From: an uncultured archaeon
Lineage (GTDB): Archaea; Asgardarchaeota; Lokiarchaeia; Sigyniarchaeales; SOKP01
Assembly: GCA_964388035.1 (NCBI GenBank)
Contig: CAYLZE010000104.1
Coordinates: forward strand, 1-18,596
Direction of reading: 5' to 3'
Length of the DNA stretch: 18,596 nt
Positions 1-15,552 of this stretch are shown in pieces (the first letter of the stretch is position 1; the number at the start of each line of letters is the position of its first letter). The translations under genes were made by a program, and so were the position numbers. Under the pieces are notes generated by a model. That model was not told the DNA's origin and did no database searches. It saw only the letters and a list, made by a program, of their open reading frames with translations.

Positions 1-142
1 TTAATTGTTAGTTGAGCAAGAATACACCATCGGTTCATTAATAAACATATTTCTTTTTAGATGCTTTAAAATAATTCCACTTGATTGGATCCATTTTAAT
101 ATTAATTTAATAGAATATAATATTAATAAAAAAAAAGATAAA

Positions 143-400
143 TTAGTTTCCACCTATAACCCTTGCCCATAAGGATAATTTATCATTTTCCTCCAAACCA
201 AATTTATGGATGGCATCATTAATAGTTATGGTCCCAGGGAGTTCTTGCCCTTTTAATACCAAGGTATAAGAGCGTTGCTCTGCACTTATAATTCCCATGT
301 GTTTTATAATAATGTCAACAATACGCTCAACTTGGTGGTGCTCTTTTACATCTAACTTAATTATTTTTCCAGTTCTGGAATCCTCCACAGTAATTCGCAT
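143..400 (-). CDS. Eukaryote-type ubiquitin-like protein (beta-grasp), precursor ending in Gly-Gly-Asn
   Basis: 85 aa. Aligns by eye along the whole of ubiquitin: MRITVEDSRTGKIIKLDV ~ MQIFVKTLTGKTITLEV; LVLKGQEL ~ LIFAGKQL; FGLEENDKLSLWARVIGG ~ YNIQKESTLHLVLRLRGG. AAGGAG lies upstream of the ATG, and a U-tract (A-run 128-136 on +) lies downstream. Confidence 0.85.
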   Translation of the reverse strand: MRITVEDSRTGKIIKLDVKEHHQVERIVDIIIKHMGIISAEQRSYTLVLKGQELPGTITINDAIHKFGLEENDKLSLWARVIGGN

Positions 401-840
401 TCTTCTTCGCTCCTTTTTCTCTCATCCTAAGGATTTATTTACTCATTAAACCTAATCTTTTAGATTTATATTTAAATATAGTAAGATGGATTTAAATTAT
501 ATTCGTTTTTGTGGTTTGATATTTATACTAATCATCTACCAAGCAATTTAAAAAATAATAAATGTTGCTTCCGTCGGGATTACCTTGAATCCCAATTCAG
601 GGATTATTTCCCAAAAATGAAAATAGCGAAGATGGAGTATGGATGTGGTCAAAAAAAGATATTTTTAAATAAATTATAATAATTGGCTAATCATCGGTTA
701 ATGTTTCCTTAATCTTAAAATAAATCTTTCAACAGAATTTTGCATTAAACGATTTAAACATGAGAAGAATATTTTCTATTAAACCAGGGAAGTAAAATGA
801 TCAGGTTGATGGGGTTAAAAATGGAAGGGACTATTATTGC

Positions 841-3967: not shown

Positions 3968-4747
3968 TCACTTAGCTATTTTATTGGCAATCATAGCTGC
4001 AGAAGCTCCTGCTCCGAATCCATTATCTATATTCACTACAAGCAAGCCCGGGGAGCACGACTGTAACATGGTGATTAAAGCCCCCTTACCTTCAGACCCC
4101 ATACCATAACCGCTTGATACCGGAACTCCAATTACTGGAACATCCACTAATGCGGTGACTACTCCCGGCAGGGTTCCTTCCATGCCTGCACATACAATAA
4201 GCACGTGAACTCCATTTTTAATCATTTCACTCAATGGGGAAAAAAGTCGATGAATGCCGGCAATTCCTATATCAAAACTTGTCATGACCTTGCATCCCAT
4301 AGCTGTTGCGATTGCCTTAGCTTCTTCGGCAATCGGAATGTCCGAACTGCCTGCTGTTATTATGCCCACGATTCCTCCTTTTTTATCAAAAGAAAAATTA
4401 GGGTCTTTTATGATGATAATCTTCCCAAGTTCATTAATTTCAACTTTCTTTCCTTCTTGTTCTTGAAATCGAGACAAGATCATCTTTTTTTGATCTTCAT
4501 TATAACGGGAAATAATAGCAAATTTTTTGGTCTTAAGAAAGGTTTCTGTAATTTCATTCAATAGTTCGAAAGGTTTGTTTTTAGCATAAATTACTTCCGG
4601 AATTCCTGTTCTAACATGTCGGTTAATATCCAATTTGGCAAGGTCTCCCACTTCTTGAATCAGATTAGCTTTAAGCAGCTTTTCAGCTTCATCTATAGAA
4701 ATTTGCTGACTGCCCAGTAATTCTAATATCTCTCGTACGCCATTCAT
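3968..4747 (-). CDS. larB: Nickel-pincer cofactor biosynthesis protein LarB (NCAIR mutase/PurE-related)
   Basis: Family motifs AKLDINRHVRTGIPEVIYAKNK, TAGSSDIPIAEEA, DIGIAGIHRL, AGMEGTLPGVV, PVIGVPVSSGYG, MLQSCSPGLLVVNIDNGFGA. Confidence 0.93.
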   Translation of the reverse strand: MNGVREILELLGSQQISIDEAEKLLKANLIQEVGDLAKLDINRHVRTGIPEVIYAKNKPFELLNEITETFLKTKKFAIISRYNEDQKKMILSRFQEQEGKKVEINELGKIIIIKDPNFSFDKKGGIVGIITAGSSDIPIAEEAKAIATAMGCKVMTSFDIGIAGIHRLFSPLSEMIKNGVHVLIVCAGMEGTLPGVVTALVDVPVIGVPVSSGYGMGSEGKGALITMLQSCSPGLLVVNIDNGFGAGASAAMIANKIAK

Positions 4748-4753
4748 GATCTC

Positions 4754-7396
4754 TCAATTCCCATATGGATTTAATTCTTTAATCATTTTTTCCAGTGTTT
4801 CTTCCTTAGTTTCTCCAGAAAAGTTGGAGAAATAACTTTCAATGCCAAAATAATCTTGGGTAAAAGATGATTCCCCTTCTAACAAATTCGGGTGAAATAT
4901 ATCCCCATTTAAATTTGGAGGGGGTCCAAAAGTGAATACTGGCTTCCATCCCGCAGCAATCATTGAAAATTCGTTCTCATCATGATTGCTTGATTCCTCC
5001 TCGACTTTGCCCATCCATGTTTGATTTGAATAGATCTCCACCATCTCATTATTTTGTAATTGAATTTGAGCAAGTAAGTTGATGGCTCCTTTGTATCCAT
5101 CGTAATTGCGTGCCTTGATAGTGATGATATTATTTCCTTCCTCAAGAAATTTCGTAATATCGAAGGTTTTTACTCTATTTAATATGGGCAATAGGGACAT
5201 TGAATATCTGGACAGGACTTCTCCAACATGTTTCCCATTTACATGAATTTCCATGTGGTTTACGGCAATTCCTTGAAGAATGGCCTTCTTGATAGGTTGA
5301 TTTATCGTGAATTCTTTTTGAAAATATCTCGGTTTTAAGGCATCTTCCCTTTCTCGAGACCAGATCCATTCCGATTTCAGATAAGGATTCACAAAATAGA
5401 TATTATTTTTGATCTGTTGGATTTTTTCTTGATACTGTTTTATCAAGAAGTCAAATAAGTTTAAGATATTATCCAAGCAAGGACGTTTTGCTGCCTTCAA
5501 CCATAATGTTTCATACTCATCCCTCATATTTTTTATTTCTTCTATCATTTTTTCAATCTTTCTTACCAGCTCATTCATTTCCTCATCTGTTTTAAGATTC
5601 TGATTTAATATTTTGGAAACTTCAATCGATAAATCAATTTTTTTCTCTAAGAAGTCTACTAATTTAGCAGAAAATATAAGATAATCAAAATGTTCTTTCT
5701 CAAAAAGAATCATGGTCTGTAATCGTCTCTGGATAGATAGACAATCTCGACCGATTTGACCTAACTTTTTATAATTATCAAAGAGCGGAAGAGCATCTTC
5801 TTTATGGAAAGGATGCTTAAAAAAGTAGGTAAAAAATAGAGGAGGAAGCAAAAGCGAGACCCGATAATAAAGGGTGGCGCTCTTACTTAACTTGGTAAAC
5901 ATTTTGTAGTATAAAGTCAAGTCATCTCCCTTAAAACCATAAAAAAGAAATCCTTGGTCTTTTTTGAATTGTTCAAAATCAAAATTTAGCGTATTCCAAG
6001 CCACCGCCCCCGATAAGAGCGCTCCAAAAATCTCATTTTCTCTCAGGCTATAATACCGCATATCGCCCCAAGTCGAATTTAAAATGCCTAAGCACCCCTT
6101 ATCACGTGCTTCATATGCAGCTTTCGTGAAATATATTATATTTTTACTTGCATTCTTGTTATCAGGAAAATGACGTTGCCAATTTAGCATGGAAGGACTG
6201 ATAATGACTTGATATCCCGCTTCTAGCAATTTTTCTAAATCGGGAAAACTTTTTTTAGCCGTATAATCCCAATACATCAAGATAAGTTTTTTAGTCAAGC
6301 CAAGTAAGATTTCAGGGTTTTTTCTCACGATATCATCATACATTATCACTTTTTCATATCCGCAATTTTTGGCAATTCGATAGACTTTTTCATAATACTC
6401 AATTAAAGCTTTACTTTTTCCCTCCCTCTCGATTAATTCCTTCGAATTAAATCGTCCTATATCGAAACTTTCATCGCATCCCACATGGAAATACTTGGTC
6501 GAAAAGCAATCGCTCATTTTAGAGATATAATCTTCCAGGAATTCCAGTACTTGGGGATTAGAAATATCAAAAGAATGAGCCCCCGGAAATTCACCCAATT
6601 TTTGATATTCTTCATGCTGTAAAATATTATCCACGTGCCCTAAACATTCAAAAATCGGAACTAATTCTATAAACCTCTCTTTCGCATATTTATCGAGCTC
6701 TTTCACTTCTTCACAAGTAAGGGCGCCTCTATTCTTTCCGATTTCGGGATGCTTGGGATGAATAAACATGTCTTCCATGTAGAGACAATAAAAATTCATC
6801 TTATAGTGACTGATTATTTTCAAGTAACGTTTCGCATTATCCAAGGTACAGACTTGCCCTCGCGAAATATCTTGAGCTATCCCCCTTATTTTTAAATCGG
6901 GGGTATCTTTAATGATAATCTCGGGTAAGGATAGAGGGTCTTCCAGGACTCGATTTGAGGGGATTTGAGAAAGATGTTTTATATAAGCATTTTTTATGAG
7001 TTGAAATAAGGTCTGAAGCCCATAAAAAATACCTCTCTCGCTCGTTCCTATTATTAGAATCCTCCCATCACGGATTTCAAGATTGTAAGCTTCCACATTT
7101 TTCGGTTCTAAAAGATCTAATGAATTCAATTGATTCAAATCCATGCTTATATCCTCTATATTGTCCCCTCTTGCTAACTTAAACTTATATATTTGCGATA
7201 GAAATTCATTCAAATCTTTCAAAAACAAGTCGGAATTCTCAAGATTAAATGTGTGAAATAATGAATTCGAGGAAAGTGTGTAAATCGATCCTTTTTGCGA
7301 ATATTCAACTAATTTTGGCTTAGGGATAAGAATTAATTCTGGATCCAAATCCCCTTCAACTTGTTTTAATTTGGATATAATAATAGCTTTTATCAT
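4754..7396 (-). CDS. Glycoside hydrolase family 20 beta-N-acetylhexosaminidase (GcnA/HexD-like) with C-terminal rhamnosidase-N-like beta-sandwich
   Basis: GH20b domain (LIPKPK; EAYNLEI...GIFYGLQTLFQL), then IKDTPDLKIRG..DISRG, LYMEDMF, ECLGH, catalytic HVGCDE, MYWDY and TWGD. The C-terminus (EWIW...RYFQKEFTI...IHVNGKHVG...FDITKFLEEGNNIITI) resembles a galactose-binding-like/rhamnosidase N-terminal sandwich. No signal peptide is evident. Confidence 0.9.
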   Translation of the reverse strand: MIKAIIISKLKQVEGDLDPELILIPKPKLVEYSQKGSIYTLSSNSLFHTFNLENSDLFLKDLNEFLSQIYKFKLARGDNIEDISMDLNQLNSLDLLEPKNVEAYNLEIRDGRILIIGTSERGIFYGLQTLFQLIKNAYIKHLSQIPSNRVLEDPLSLPEIIIKDTPDLKIRGIAQDISRGQVCTLDNAKRYLKIISHYKMNFYCLYMEDMFIHPKHPEIGKNRGALTCEEVKELDKYAKERFIELVPIFECLGHVDNILQHEEYQKLGEFPGAHSFDISNPQVLEFLEDYISKMSDCFSTKYFHVGCDESFDIGRFNSKELIEREGKSKALIEYYEKVYRIAKNCGYEKVIMYDDIVRKNPEILLGLTKKLILMYWDYTAKKSFPDLEKLLEAGYQVIISPSMLNWQRHFPDNKNASKNIIYFTKAAYEARDKGCLGILNSTWGDMRYYSLRENEIFGALLSGAVAWNTLNFDFEQFKKDQGFLFYGFKGDDLTLYYKMFTKLSKSATLYYRVSLLLPPLFFTYFFKHPFHKEDALPLFDNYKKLGQIGRDCLSIQRRLQTMILFEKEHFDYLIFSAKLVDFLEKKIDLSIEVSKILNQNLKTDEEMNELVRKIEKMIEEIKNMRDEYETLWLKAAKRPCLDNILNLFDFLIKQYQEKIQQIKNNIYFVNPYLKSEWIWSREREDALKPRYFQKEFTINQPIKKAILQGIAVNHMEIHVNGKHVGEVLSRYSMSLLPILNRVKTFDITKFLEEGNNIITIKARNYDGYKGAINLLAQIQLQNNEMVEIYSNQTWMGKVEEESSNHDENEFSMIAAGWKPVFTFGPPPNLNGDIFHPNLLEGESSFTQDYFGIESYFSNFSGETKEETLEKMIKELNPYGN

Positions 7397-11477: not shown

Positions 11478-11579
11478 GGGCCGATAGTCTAGTGGTATGA
11501 CGTTCGCTTGACGTGGTGGTTAATTTCCTAGCCACAATCGAAATGCGAAAGGTCGGGAGTTCAATCCTCCCTCGGCCCA
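11478..11579 (+). tRNA. tRNA-Val(GAC) with a 30-nt intron at canonical position 37/38 (intron 11514-11543)
   Basis: Acceptor GGGCCGA/TCGGCCC plus discriminator A. D arm GTCT-AGTGGTA-TGAC. Anticodon stem TTCGC/GCGAA with GAC at 11510-11512. T arm GGGAG-TTCAATC-CTCCC. Central splice helix TTGA:TCGA with a 3-nt bulge AA|T, and intron hairpin GTGGTTA/TAGCCAC. CCA is not encoded. Confidence 0.95.
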
Positions 11580-13362: not shown

Positions 13363-13626
13363 TCGCACGGTCTTTATAATTAATTGGTTTATAAGGCCTT
13401 ATCCATTAAATCTTTAATTCCTCTCGATCACTAATTTTTTCTCATATTTTGCTCATAGGAAAAAAAAATACCCTCTTTCAGAGAATAGTTTCAGAATTTC
13501 ATCTATTTCTAATTGTGTTTCTTCAACATCTTAGGATGATAGAGGAGAACATATATTAAACCATAATACTATATTTAATTATTCAAGTTGTATTTTAACA
13601 TTTTTGAGGAAAGTATAAGAATAAAC

Positions 13627-14475
13627 ATGAGTGTTGAAATTCGTTGTCCCATTTGTTCAAAACGGGGGACATTTACAATTTCAGAGGACTCTTTAAAGAA
13701 CGTGGAGCGGGGTTTATTAGCAGTAAATATAGCAGAGGGAATCGTATGCGAACATTCCTTTATTGCTTATGTCGATAAGAACCTGCAAGTACGTGATTAT
13801 TTCATGGCAGATTTTCAACTTGAAATGCCTGCAATAGAAGAAGTGAAGGAGGACGCTAAGAAAAGGATACCACCTAAAGAACAACTGGATATAGATTTGA
13901 TTAAGCTCAATATTACCCCCTCATTCCTTGTTTATGCAATCAGGATGATTTTCCACAAGAAAAGTCCTATTTTTATATTAAAAGAGGCATTTTTAAAGAA
14001 TCACTTGCTTACTTTTTTTGCTTTTATCACGGAGAATTCTTTTGATTTTGATTCTACCTTTCTAGATGAGGAAGAATACCAGAAGCAAAAGAGGGAATTG
14101 AAGAAAAGGATCATTTTTAAAGGAAAAGATGTTATTAACGACCCCGAGAAGGTTGCAGATTTAAAAAAGATGAACGTGGAGCAAAGCATGATTCAGATGT
14201 TTTATGCAGAGCCTGATGAAAGTACGAGTTTAATCCTTTTGAAGAATGAAATACAAAAAATACATGAAATGACGAAAATGTTAATAGACTTTATTGATCA
14301 AGAAGAGGACAAGGAGATCTTGAATACAAAAAAAATGATAGAACGGCTGACCTCAGAATATCACCAGAAAATTTCTATTAAGTTCTTTGATTTTTTATTA
14401 GACGTGATTGAATATTATTTTGAAAAAGAAATCCCTAATACTTCTAAGGTATCCGATTTTTTGGATCTTTTTTAA
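13627..14475 (+). CDS. Zn-finger (CxxC...CxH) domain protein, paralog 1 (start revised from TTG 13588 to ATG 13627)
   Basis: Starting at ATG 13627 gives MSVEIRCPIC and 282 aa, the same length as and colinear with 14704..15552. Motifs CPIC and CEHSFIAYVDKNLQVRDY. Confidence 0.8.
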   Translation: MSVEIRCPICSKRGTFTISEDSLKNVERGLLAVNIAEGIVCEHSFIAYVDKNLQVRDYFMADFQLEMPAIEEVKEDAKKRIPPKEQLDIDLIKLNITPSFLVYAIRMIFHKKSPIFILKEAFLKNHLLTFFAFITENSFDFDSTFLDEEEYQKQKRELKKRIIFKGKDVINDPEKVADLKKMNVEQSMIQMFYAEPDESTSLILLKNEIQKIHEMTKMLIDFIDQEEDKEILNTKKMIERLTSEYHQKISIKFFDFLLDVIEYYFEKEIPNTSKVSDFLDLF

Positions 14476-14703: not shown

Positions 14704-15552
14704 ATGAGTGTTGATATCCGTTGTCCAAGTTGTTCAAAACGAGGAAAGATTGAGGTATCTCAAGATTCACTCAAAAATGTAACGCGTGGCTTGCTAGCCG
14801 TGAACGTTTCAAAAGGGCTCGTCTGCGATCACTCGTTTATTGCTTATATTGATAAAAATTTGCAAGTGCGCGATTACTTCATGGCGGATTTTCACCTCGA
14901 ACTGCCCGTCATAGCAGAAGTAAAAGAGGACGCTAAGAAAAAGATACCGCCTAAAGAGCAACTCGATATCGATATTATTAAATTGAATATAACCCCTTCT
15001 CTCTTGACATACTTAATTAAAATGATTTTTCTGAAGAAAAATCCCGTGATCCTTATCGATGAAGCGTTTATAAAACAGAATCTTCAAGCTTTTTATAAAT
15101 TCATCACGGAAAATTCATTTGACTATAATTTTACCTACATGAATGAGGAAGAATATAAGAAGCAAAAGAAGGACCTTAAGGAAAGAATCGTGTTTAAAGG
15201 AAAAGAAATCGTCAATGATAAAGAAAATATCGTCGATCTGAAGAAATCTCATGTAGAGCAAAGCATGATTCAGAAATTTTTTGCGGAACTTGATGCAAGT
15301 ACGAGCTTGATCATTATAAAAAATGAAATACAGAAATTTTATGAATTAGCCAAGAATTTAATGGGTTTTATCGAACAAACGGAAAATAAGGATACGCTGA
15401 ATTCTAAAAAAATGATTGATTTCTTGAGCAAGGAGTATCAGGAAAAATTCTCCGTGAAAATCCTTGATTTTCTCTTGGAAATCATTGAAAACTATTTTGG
15501 AATGGAAGTACCCAAAAAATCCAACGTGTCAGATTTTCTCGGCTTCTTATAA
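14704..15552 (+). CDS. Zn-finger (CxxC...CxH) domain protein, paralog 2
   Basis: 282 aa with CPSC and CDHSFIAYIDKNLQVRDY. About 65% identical to paralog 1 by manual ungapped count. Confidence 0.85.
   Translation: MSVDIRCPSCSKRGKIEVSQDSLKNVTRGLLAVNVSKGLVCDHSFIAYIDKNLQVRDYFMADFHLELPVIAEVKEDAKKKIPPKEQLDIDIIKLNITPSLLTYLIKMIFLKKNPVILIDEAFIKQNLQAFYKFITENSFDYNFTYMNEEEYKKQKKDLKERIVFKGKEIVNDKENIVDLKKSHVEQSMIQKFFAELDASTSLIIIKNEIQKFYELAKNLMGFIEQTENKDTLNSKKMIDFLSKEYQEKFSVKILDFLLEIIENYFGMEVPKKSNVSDFLGFL

Follow-up and report, generated by a model that had tools for sequence, protein, structure and literature searches.

At one end of the 18,596-nucleotide stretch of DNA analysed here, which we call the window, lies a short gene for a ubiquitin-like protein (Ubl) whose sequence ends in a diglycine followed by a single asparagine. 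An earlier reading, made from the sequence alone, reported that no conjugation enzyme gene lies within the window, which we confirm, and regarded the Ubl gene as stand-alone. This raises the question of what kind of protein the gene encodes, and whether the archaeon carries enzymes that would process it and attach it to other proteins.

A ubiquitin-like gene that standard annotation misses

The translation of the open reading frame at 143-400 (reverse strand) ends in ...LWARVIGGN before the stop codon. The features of the gene and of the adjoining contig edge are as follows.

143-400, reverse strand: coding sequence of the Ubl precursor, 85 aa, stop codon at 143-145 (from translation, homologues and fold model).
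410-413, reverse strand: Shine-Dalgarno-like GGAG, 9 nt 5' of the ATG at 400-398 (direct sequence reading).
149-154, reverse strand: codons of Gly83-Gly84, the predicted mature C-terminus and conjugation site (from conservation and profile alignment).
146-148, reverse strand: codon of Asn85, a one-residue C-terminal cap that is predicted to be trimmed (the residue is variable in the family).
1-73, forward strand: last base and TAA stop codon (2-4) of the cognate E2 gene, plus 3' spacer, at the contig break (from the match to contig C13).
5-142, no strand: 138-nt convergent spacer from the E2 stop to the Ubl stop (same arrangement in relatives).

Sequence searches returned 172 homologues of the Ubl at E ≤ 0.01, with identities of 73-90% among the 120 matches listed. 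These homologues indicate that the open reading frame is a genuine gene. All 120 homologues among the matches listed bear the product name 'hypothetical protein' and '-' in the precomputed Pfam field. In Pfam, the window Ubl gave no match to the ubiquitin family, PF00240, and fell short of its gathering score; its best match was Rad60-SLD at 17.2 bits, below the cut-off of 23.8, and NCBIfam returned nothing for it. With no Pfam match and a 'hypothetical protein' label among the homologues listed, the family is invisible to standard annotation. A phmmer search of the PDB with the single Ubl sequence retrieved polyubiquitin, ubiquitin and NEDD8 at E-values of 0.006-1. ThiS/MoaD-type families gave no Pfam or NCBIfam match for the Ubl even at E ≤ 10.

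Elsewhere in the window, an Rfam tRNA match of 57.3 bits was found at 11478-11579 (+), spanning 102 nt compared with 71 positions in the model; it is probably an intron-containing archaeal tRNA, and ARAGORN reported no tRNA in the window. Two paralogues in tandem, 295 and 282 aa long, at 13588-14475 (+) and 14704-15552 (+), share an N-terminal CPxCSKRG zinc-ribbon-like motif and have no Pfam match.

The predicted fold is that of ubiquitin

The Ubl was modelled by AlphaFold2 with the family alignment. The model is a beta-grasp of the order ββ-α-ββ-α-β, with a mean pLDDT of 83.7 and a pTM of 0.69. A Foldseek search of the PDB with this model ranked ubiquitin at the top (E 1e-7, TM 0.73/0.81, 27-30% identity), followed by NEDD8 and SUMO. 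VIA-align, run against 48,161 representative chains, also ranked a ubiquitin chain highest, with Z 11.7, an rmsd of 1.7 Å for 74 residues and 30% identity; the scores of other Ubls lay within about one Z unit of ubiquitin, but with identities of 12-21%. The 50 matches listed by either search, Foldseek or VIA-align, comprised ubiquitin-type modifiers, Ubl domains and other beta-grasp proteins, and none was a sulfur carrier (MoaD, ThiS, SAMP or Urm1). On the matches listed, Pfam, Foldseek and VIA-align support the sequence-only reading that the protein is ubiquitin-like and not MoaD/ThiS-like. We regard the window protein as a genuine precursor of a ubiquitin-type modifier. The three outcomes that would have spoken against the sequence-only reading did not arise: the fold is a beta-grasp, the protein does not group with MoaD/ThiS among the matches listed, and the diglycine is conserved.

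Predicted conjugation enzymes lie across a contig break

The first 73 nt of the window are the reverse complement of positions 690-762 of another contig of the same genome, C13, at 94.5% identity (4 mismatches over 73 nt). From this overlap C13 runs on into the C-terminus of an E2 (...DDIIVIDD and stop), and it carries the cognate E2-E1-JAMM-longin/GTPase operon, with E2 at C13:759-1328, E1 at C13:1489-2397 and JAMM at C13:2504-2995. The contig of the window, C104, breaks 1 nt inside the E2 gene. The match to C13 was the sole overlap found for the start of C104, and no exact k-mer overlap with any contig end was detected at k = 21-127.

Two relatives bear on how these contigs are ordered. In the closest relative, which has a 90%-identical Ubl, a single contig (L084) carries the genes for Ubl, E2, E1, JAMM, GTPase and LarC, a 244-aa gene and NikR, and matches the gene order of C13 over >10 kb. 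The Ubl-E2 spacer of this relative is 158 nt, compared with 138 nt in the window, and its contig has a NikR_C gene at 6532-7095. The sole other genome of the same genus (G162) is without the Ubl and without this E2. A single contig of G162 carries, in order, GH20, LarB, a 380-aa gene, genes for a membrane protein and a TPR protein, a stretch of 256 nt, and LarC with genes of 244, 191 and 332 aa. This is the order of the window genes joined directly to the C13 genes, with 256 nt in place of the cassette. From this synteny and the 73-nt overlap, we infer that C104 and C13 abut. The empty site in G162 therefore defines Ubl, E2, E1, JAMM and longin-GTPase, ~4 kb in all, as one presence/absence unit.

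The cassette is flanked by a LarB-like gene (AIR carboxylase family; window 3968-4747, -) and a LarC-like gene (Ni_insertion; C13:4254-5549, -). In G162, where the cassette is missing, 3.4 kb separate the two Lar genes. Directly upstream of the Ubl, on the same strand, the window encodes a TPR protein of 181 aa with a weak MIT-like match (841-1386, -); this protein also lies beside LarC in G162 and therefore belongs to the flank and not to the cassette. Where the Ubl would be expected on C13, positions 1-711 (+) hold a 5'-open HD-domain ORF. Positions 1-700 of C13 are unique in the assembly and have no counterpart in the closest relative or in G162. The HD-domain ORF (C13:1-690) may be a strain-level insertion or a chimeric join at the junction; the estimated contamination of the MAG is 7.3%.

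The view of the Ubl gene as stand-alone therefore did not hold. It looks so because the assembly breaks at the stop codon of the E2 in its own operon, at window 2-4, and the E2-E1-JAMM operon continues on C13. A gene that lies at the edge of a contig needs to be compared with the other contigs before it is called 'stand-alone'.

Other Ubls and conjugation enzymes are present in the same genome. An 84-aa Ubl passing the PF00240 threshold and ending in AGG-K lies on C33 (23061-23246, -). A second such Ubl, of 115 aa and ending in STAG, lies on C42 (15691-15861, -) next to a 408-aa E1 with an E2 match nearby, and a third E1/E2 pair is found on C38.

A conserved E2-E1-JAMM operon faces the Ubl

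The arrangement seen across the contig break recurs in other genomes. Two long contigs from other MAGs have the Ubl convergent with E2 (UQ_con), E1 (ThiF) and JAB genes, and at 29 further loci the Ubl adjoins orthologues of the C13 E2 (54-68% identity) and E1 (66-77%). In all 31 loci from other genomes, the Ubl is convergent (tail-to-tail) with the adjacent C13-type E2, and E1 and JAMM genes are also found beside it wherever the fetched flank reaches. The order JAMM-E1-E2 faces the Ubl in 18 of 18 wider loci. Upstream of JAMM in these 18 loci lie one to three longin/Roadblock-GTPase-like genes, which are full-length in 15, partial in two and absent from the fetched flank in one. The Ubl is more conserved than its own enzymes.

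The catalytic motifs of the enzymes are intact. In JAMM, E33, H103, H105, S113 and D116 are invariant in 19 sequences. The HPN motif and Cys113 of E2 are invariant in 20 sequences, with about ten extra residues between them relative to the canonical spacing, as read from the sequence. In E1, the GxGxxG motif, two CxxC pairs and Cys209 are invariant in 23 sequences. Among solved structures in the PDB, E1 is nearest to the active adenylation domain of Uba1/UBA6/UBA7 (5e-26, compared with 2e-18 for MoeB), E2 to eukaryotic UBC enzymes, and JAMM to the Caldiarchaeum Rpn11-like protein 6fjv (8e-13). E1 has 302 aa, the size of MoeB, so that neither a separate catalytic-cysteine domain nor a UFD is expected from its length.

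No RING was found by Pfam in the C13 cassette genes or in the cassette-upstream genes of a further locus (L011). RING (PF13639) matches in the archaeon's own genome were located only on other contigs (C8, C84, C25 and C31). A 67-aa gene upstream of JAMM in another locus (L014) was considered as a small RING and rejected, as it has no visible RING-like Cys/His pattern; its translation looks, by eye, like the longin/Roadblock-like N-terminal part of the GTPase protein of the cassette. The sequence-only reading had proposed a whole-genome search for such enzymes; E2, E1 and JAMM were located on C13, and RING matches on other contigs.

The diglycine is conserved and the residues after it are not

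A family profile was built from 39 members, and residues were counted column by column over 121 members. The diglycine aligns with G75-G76 of ubiquitin and is near-invariant, with G83 in 120 and G84 in 121 of the 121 members. The tail past it is 0-11 residues long and not conserved. At position 85, 34 members have F, 23 S and 10 L, whereas 15 have no residue there; only 4 tails are exactly GG-N. A conserved diglycine with a variable tail is the sequence pattern expected of a trimmed precursor. Of the earlier claim that the diglycine is masked by an asparagine, the conserved diglycine and the tail that follows it were borne out, but a single-Asn cap is not a feature of the family. Since the residue after the diglycine is variable, we regard the single Asn as incidental and the cap as optional. 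The 15 members that end at GG indicate that trimming is not universally needed, and a variable or absent residue 85 makes an obligate protease switch unlikely. We rejected the parallel with the GG-Asn ends of Rub1 and UBI4 polyubiquitin as coincidental, since the residue after the diglycine is not conserved. By analogy with Caldiarchaeum Rpn11 (PMC5654768), Asn85 would be removed by JAMM.

A conserved surface unlike that of ubiquitin

The family profile aligned Ubl residues 8-85 with ubiquitin 7-77. The Ubl is 8 residues longer and has two insertions relative to ubiquitin, SYT after R42 and A-x-H-K after D58. HMMER alignments and counts over the 121 homologues reproduced the residue mapping of the sequence-only reading. 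K11 of ubiquitin is kept as K12 in 120 of 121 members. The hydrophobic-patch positions L8, I44 and V70 are replaced by R9 (121/121), V48 (121/121) and W78 (120/121), which supports the altered binding surface proposed earlier. R72 corresponds to R (80 members) or K (40) at position 80, and R74 to I (61) or V (60) at position 82. The absence of lysines equivalent to K48 and K63 held in part: K63 corresponds to E71 in all 121 members, but position 52, equivalent to K48, is variable, with Q in 83, K in 18 and R in 14.

The R9/V48/W78 surface suggests that the Ubl has a recognition surface unlike that of ubiquitin. Judged from these residues, the distinct surface may keep the Ubl system apart from the other Ubls of the genome.

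The cassette is accessory and restricted to Loki-type Asgard archaea

Of 400 genomes of the phylum, the Ubl profile found the family in 77, which all belong to two taxonomic families within one order, f1 (72 of 134 genomes) and f4 (4 of 4). In f1, Ubl and E2 occur together in 68 genomes and are both missing from ~61, and most of the 5 discordant cases are contig-edge fragments or a fusion form. Several complete genomes are without the cassette, which is therefore accessory. When 1.84 billion representative proteins were searched exhaustively with the profile, 30 hits reached E ≤ 0.001; they comprise the Ubl family, a number of fusion proteins and, with the weakest scores, eukaryotic polyubiquitins, which are the only proteins that the profile detects outside its own family. 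The source names are Promethearchaeota or Lokiarchaeia MAGs, with a few labelled Hermod-, Hod- or Thorarchaeota, and the clusters of ten family members contained MAG records only and no cultured organism. The suggestion of a distinct Ubl lineage was thus upheld: the family is restricted to Loki-type Asgard archaea and is missed by PF00240.

Related forms occur outside the cassette. In the sister family f4 (L080, which is G279:C1:41500-51500, and L081), the Ubl has no adjacent E2, E1 or JAMM. The f4 Ubl is 72-74% identical and matches Rad60-SLD at 28.8 bits, above the cut-off; it lies next to genes for a UPF0047 protein and for a protein of 456 aa that combines a Ras-like domain with a zinc ribbon. 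Four long proteins (L053:1411-3039 (+), from G274:C59, and P0125, P0133 and P0134) start with or contain a family Ubl ending in ...VVGG. The protein of G274 has a second Ubl ending in ...QKGG and then a large unannotated C-terminal region. These long proteins look like polyubiquitin-like or fusion precursors.

Diverged Ubl paralogues with 55-63% identity, still GG-ended, were found at L055 (G207:C70:40000-54000), L056 (G188:C1:1982000-1993000) and L054:13427-13678, with no E1, E2 or JAMM nearby at these three loci. Most are convergent with a protein that bears the cassette-type GTPase domain at its N-terminus; the one case tested has a weak TPR-like match in its C-terminal part. Between two Ubl copies lies a gene for a multi-pass membrane protein whose C-terminus is weakly RING-like (L056:4161-5108).

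Proposed pathway and alternative explanations

We consider it likely that the Ubl serves as modifier in a conjugation cassette of five genes that is specific to the Loki-type Asgard lineage and is split here over C104 and C13, and that JAMM trims the modifier before E1 and E2 conjugate it. The cassette would have the layout [longin/Roadblock-GTPase]-JAMM-E1-E2, with the Ubl convergent on E2. Cleavage of the 85-aa precursor after Gly84 would most likely fall to the Rpn11-like JAMM metalloprotease. The free carboxylate of Gly84 would then be adenylated and thioesterified by the 302-aa E1, and the Ubl would be handed to Cys113 of E2 and attached to lysines of its targets. JAMM may also reverse the conjugation. 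The steps of trimming, activation (adenylation and thioester transfer), conjugation and deconjugation are proposed by analogy with the tested system of Caldiarchaeum subterraneum. In that system, pro-ubiquitin has a 9-aa tail that is first cleaved by Rpn11, and only then is the protein activated by E1 and E2 (PMC5654768; PMC6043591, in its available part).

An antiviral function of the bacterial Bil or ISG15-like type, in which the same chemistry would conjugate the Ubl to viral proteins, is improbable. In its four-gene composition the cassette matches the bacterial systems in the available part of PMC10557695. Its distribution is also that of a patchy accessory element, found in 72 of the 134 f1 genomes and missing from several complete genomes and from G162. 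It differs between congeners by a clean ~4-kb indel, occupies different chromosomal sites in different genera, and is accompanied in some genomes by extra paralogous Ubl copies. However, no other gene of the cassette is as conserved as the Ubl (73-90% identity among the matches listed), and such high conservation is unusual for genes in an arms race. Its neighbours in the archaeon's own genome, the Lar cofactor genes, a GH20 hydrolase and PGK, do not form a defence island. E1, E2 and JAMM have their nearest relatives of solved structure among eukaryotic or Caldiarchaeum proteins and not among bacterial Bil/Cap proteins. PADLOC (2023), which may lack Bil models, had no match for the Ubl or E2 and gave only generic CBASS matches for E1 and JAB, far weaker than those of Pfam ThiF and JAB.

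Very unlikely, in our judgement, is a ubiquitin-fold adaptor that is not conjugated and acts by binding, for example to the longin-GTPase-like protein, with no catalytic role for the diglycine. A near-invariant diglycine and strict co-occurrence with intact E1, E2 and JAMM are hard to explain otherwise than by chemistry at the C-terminus. Such an adaptor would nonetheless fit the tight association with one GTPase-like family, the Ubl paralogues that pair with proteins having the same GTPase domain (40-49% identity) with no E1 or E2 nearby, and the fusion forms with the Ubl as N-terminal domain, some of them without GG.

The least probable explanation, a sulfur carrier of the MoaD/ThiS/SAMP/Urm1 type served by a MoeB-like E1, draws on an E1 that is MoeB-sized, has two CxxC zinc motifs and matches MoeB and ThiF significantly in the PDB, but E1 scores higher against Uba1 than against MoeB, the Ubl has no ThiS or MoaD Pfam match even at E ≤ 10 and no sulfur carrier among the Foldseek and VIA-align matches listed, most members have a tail after the diglycine, and the cassette also encodes an E2 with HPN...Cys and a JAMM, neither of which, to our knowledge, sulfur transfer needs.

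The conjugation cassette is relevant to the archaeal ubiquitin systems that serve to reconstruct the origin of eukaryotic ubiquitylation. Loki-type Asgard archaea carry this separate ubiquitin-fold modifier beside other E1/E2 pairs and PF00240-type Ubls. The Ubl is gained or lost as a unit with E1, E2 and JAMM, with a longin-GTPase-like gene upstream of JAMM in most loci examined, and these four proteins make a compact set for reconstitution in biochemical work. It is also possible, though we lean against it, that some Loki-type Asgard archaea have a second, orthogonal ubiquitin code, with a mobile, self-contained cassette, an R9/W78 surface that insulates it from other Ubls, a longin-GTPase-like adaptor and dispersed RING-type ligases. 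If so, a eukaryote-style layout of multi-Ubl signalling would have arisen independently in an archaeon.

Comparison with known systems

The cassette differs from bacterial Bil in its archaeal host, in enzymes nearer to eukaryotic and Caldiarchaeum proteins, and in the lack of a PADLOC match for the Ubl and E2; it shares with Bil, as represented in the available part of PMC10557695, the set of Ubl, E2, E1 and JAB and a patchy accessory distribution. Ubiquitin clusters linked to ESCRT/UEV-Vps23 have been described in Asgard archaea (PMC9192718; bioRxiv 10.1101/2023.07.25.550441). Like these, the present cassette pairs an archaeal ubiquitin-type modifier with E1 and E2, but no ESCRT or UEV gene lies beside it in the loci examined. 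Neither the Ubl family nor the JAMM-E1-E2/convergent-Ubl/longin-GTPase layout is described in PMC9192718, bioRxiv 10.1101/2023.07.25.550441 or PMC5654768.

Eukaryotic ubiquitin and NEDD8 have the fold of the Ubl and provide its best structural match, with 27-33% structure-based identity, and the Ubl keeps the TGK hairpin, R42, R72 and the GG end. The cognate E1 is likewise closest to the active adenylation domain of Uba1. In contrast to ubiquitin, L8/I44/V70 are replaced by R9/V48/W78, K63 by an invariant Glu, K48 mostly by Gln and R74 by Ile or Val. The E1 is small and single-chain, and the cassette is accessory and not universal.

The operon of Caldiarchaeum subterraneum encodes a pro-ubiquitin, an E1-like and an E2-like protein and a small RING finger, with an adjacent Rpn11-like JAMM (PMC5654768; PMC6043591, in its available part). 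Both systems have a beta-grasp precursor with residues after the diglycine, clustered with E1, E2 and an Rpn11-like JAMM with an intact metal site. The Asgard Ubl is nevertheless a separate sequence family, and its profile did not retrieve Caldiarchaeum ubiquitin from the PDB. It is transcribed convergently to its enzymes, its tails are short (0-11 aa; none in 15 of 121 members), no small RING gene was seen in the cassette, and a longin/Roadblock-GTPase-like gene heads the operon. Collectively, these comparisons place the Ubl cassette among the known archaeal ubiquitin cassettes, of which it is a family-level variant.
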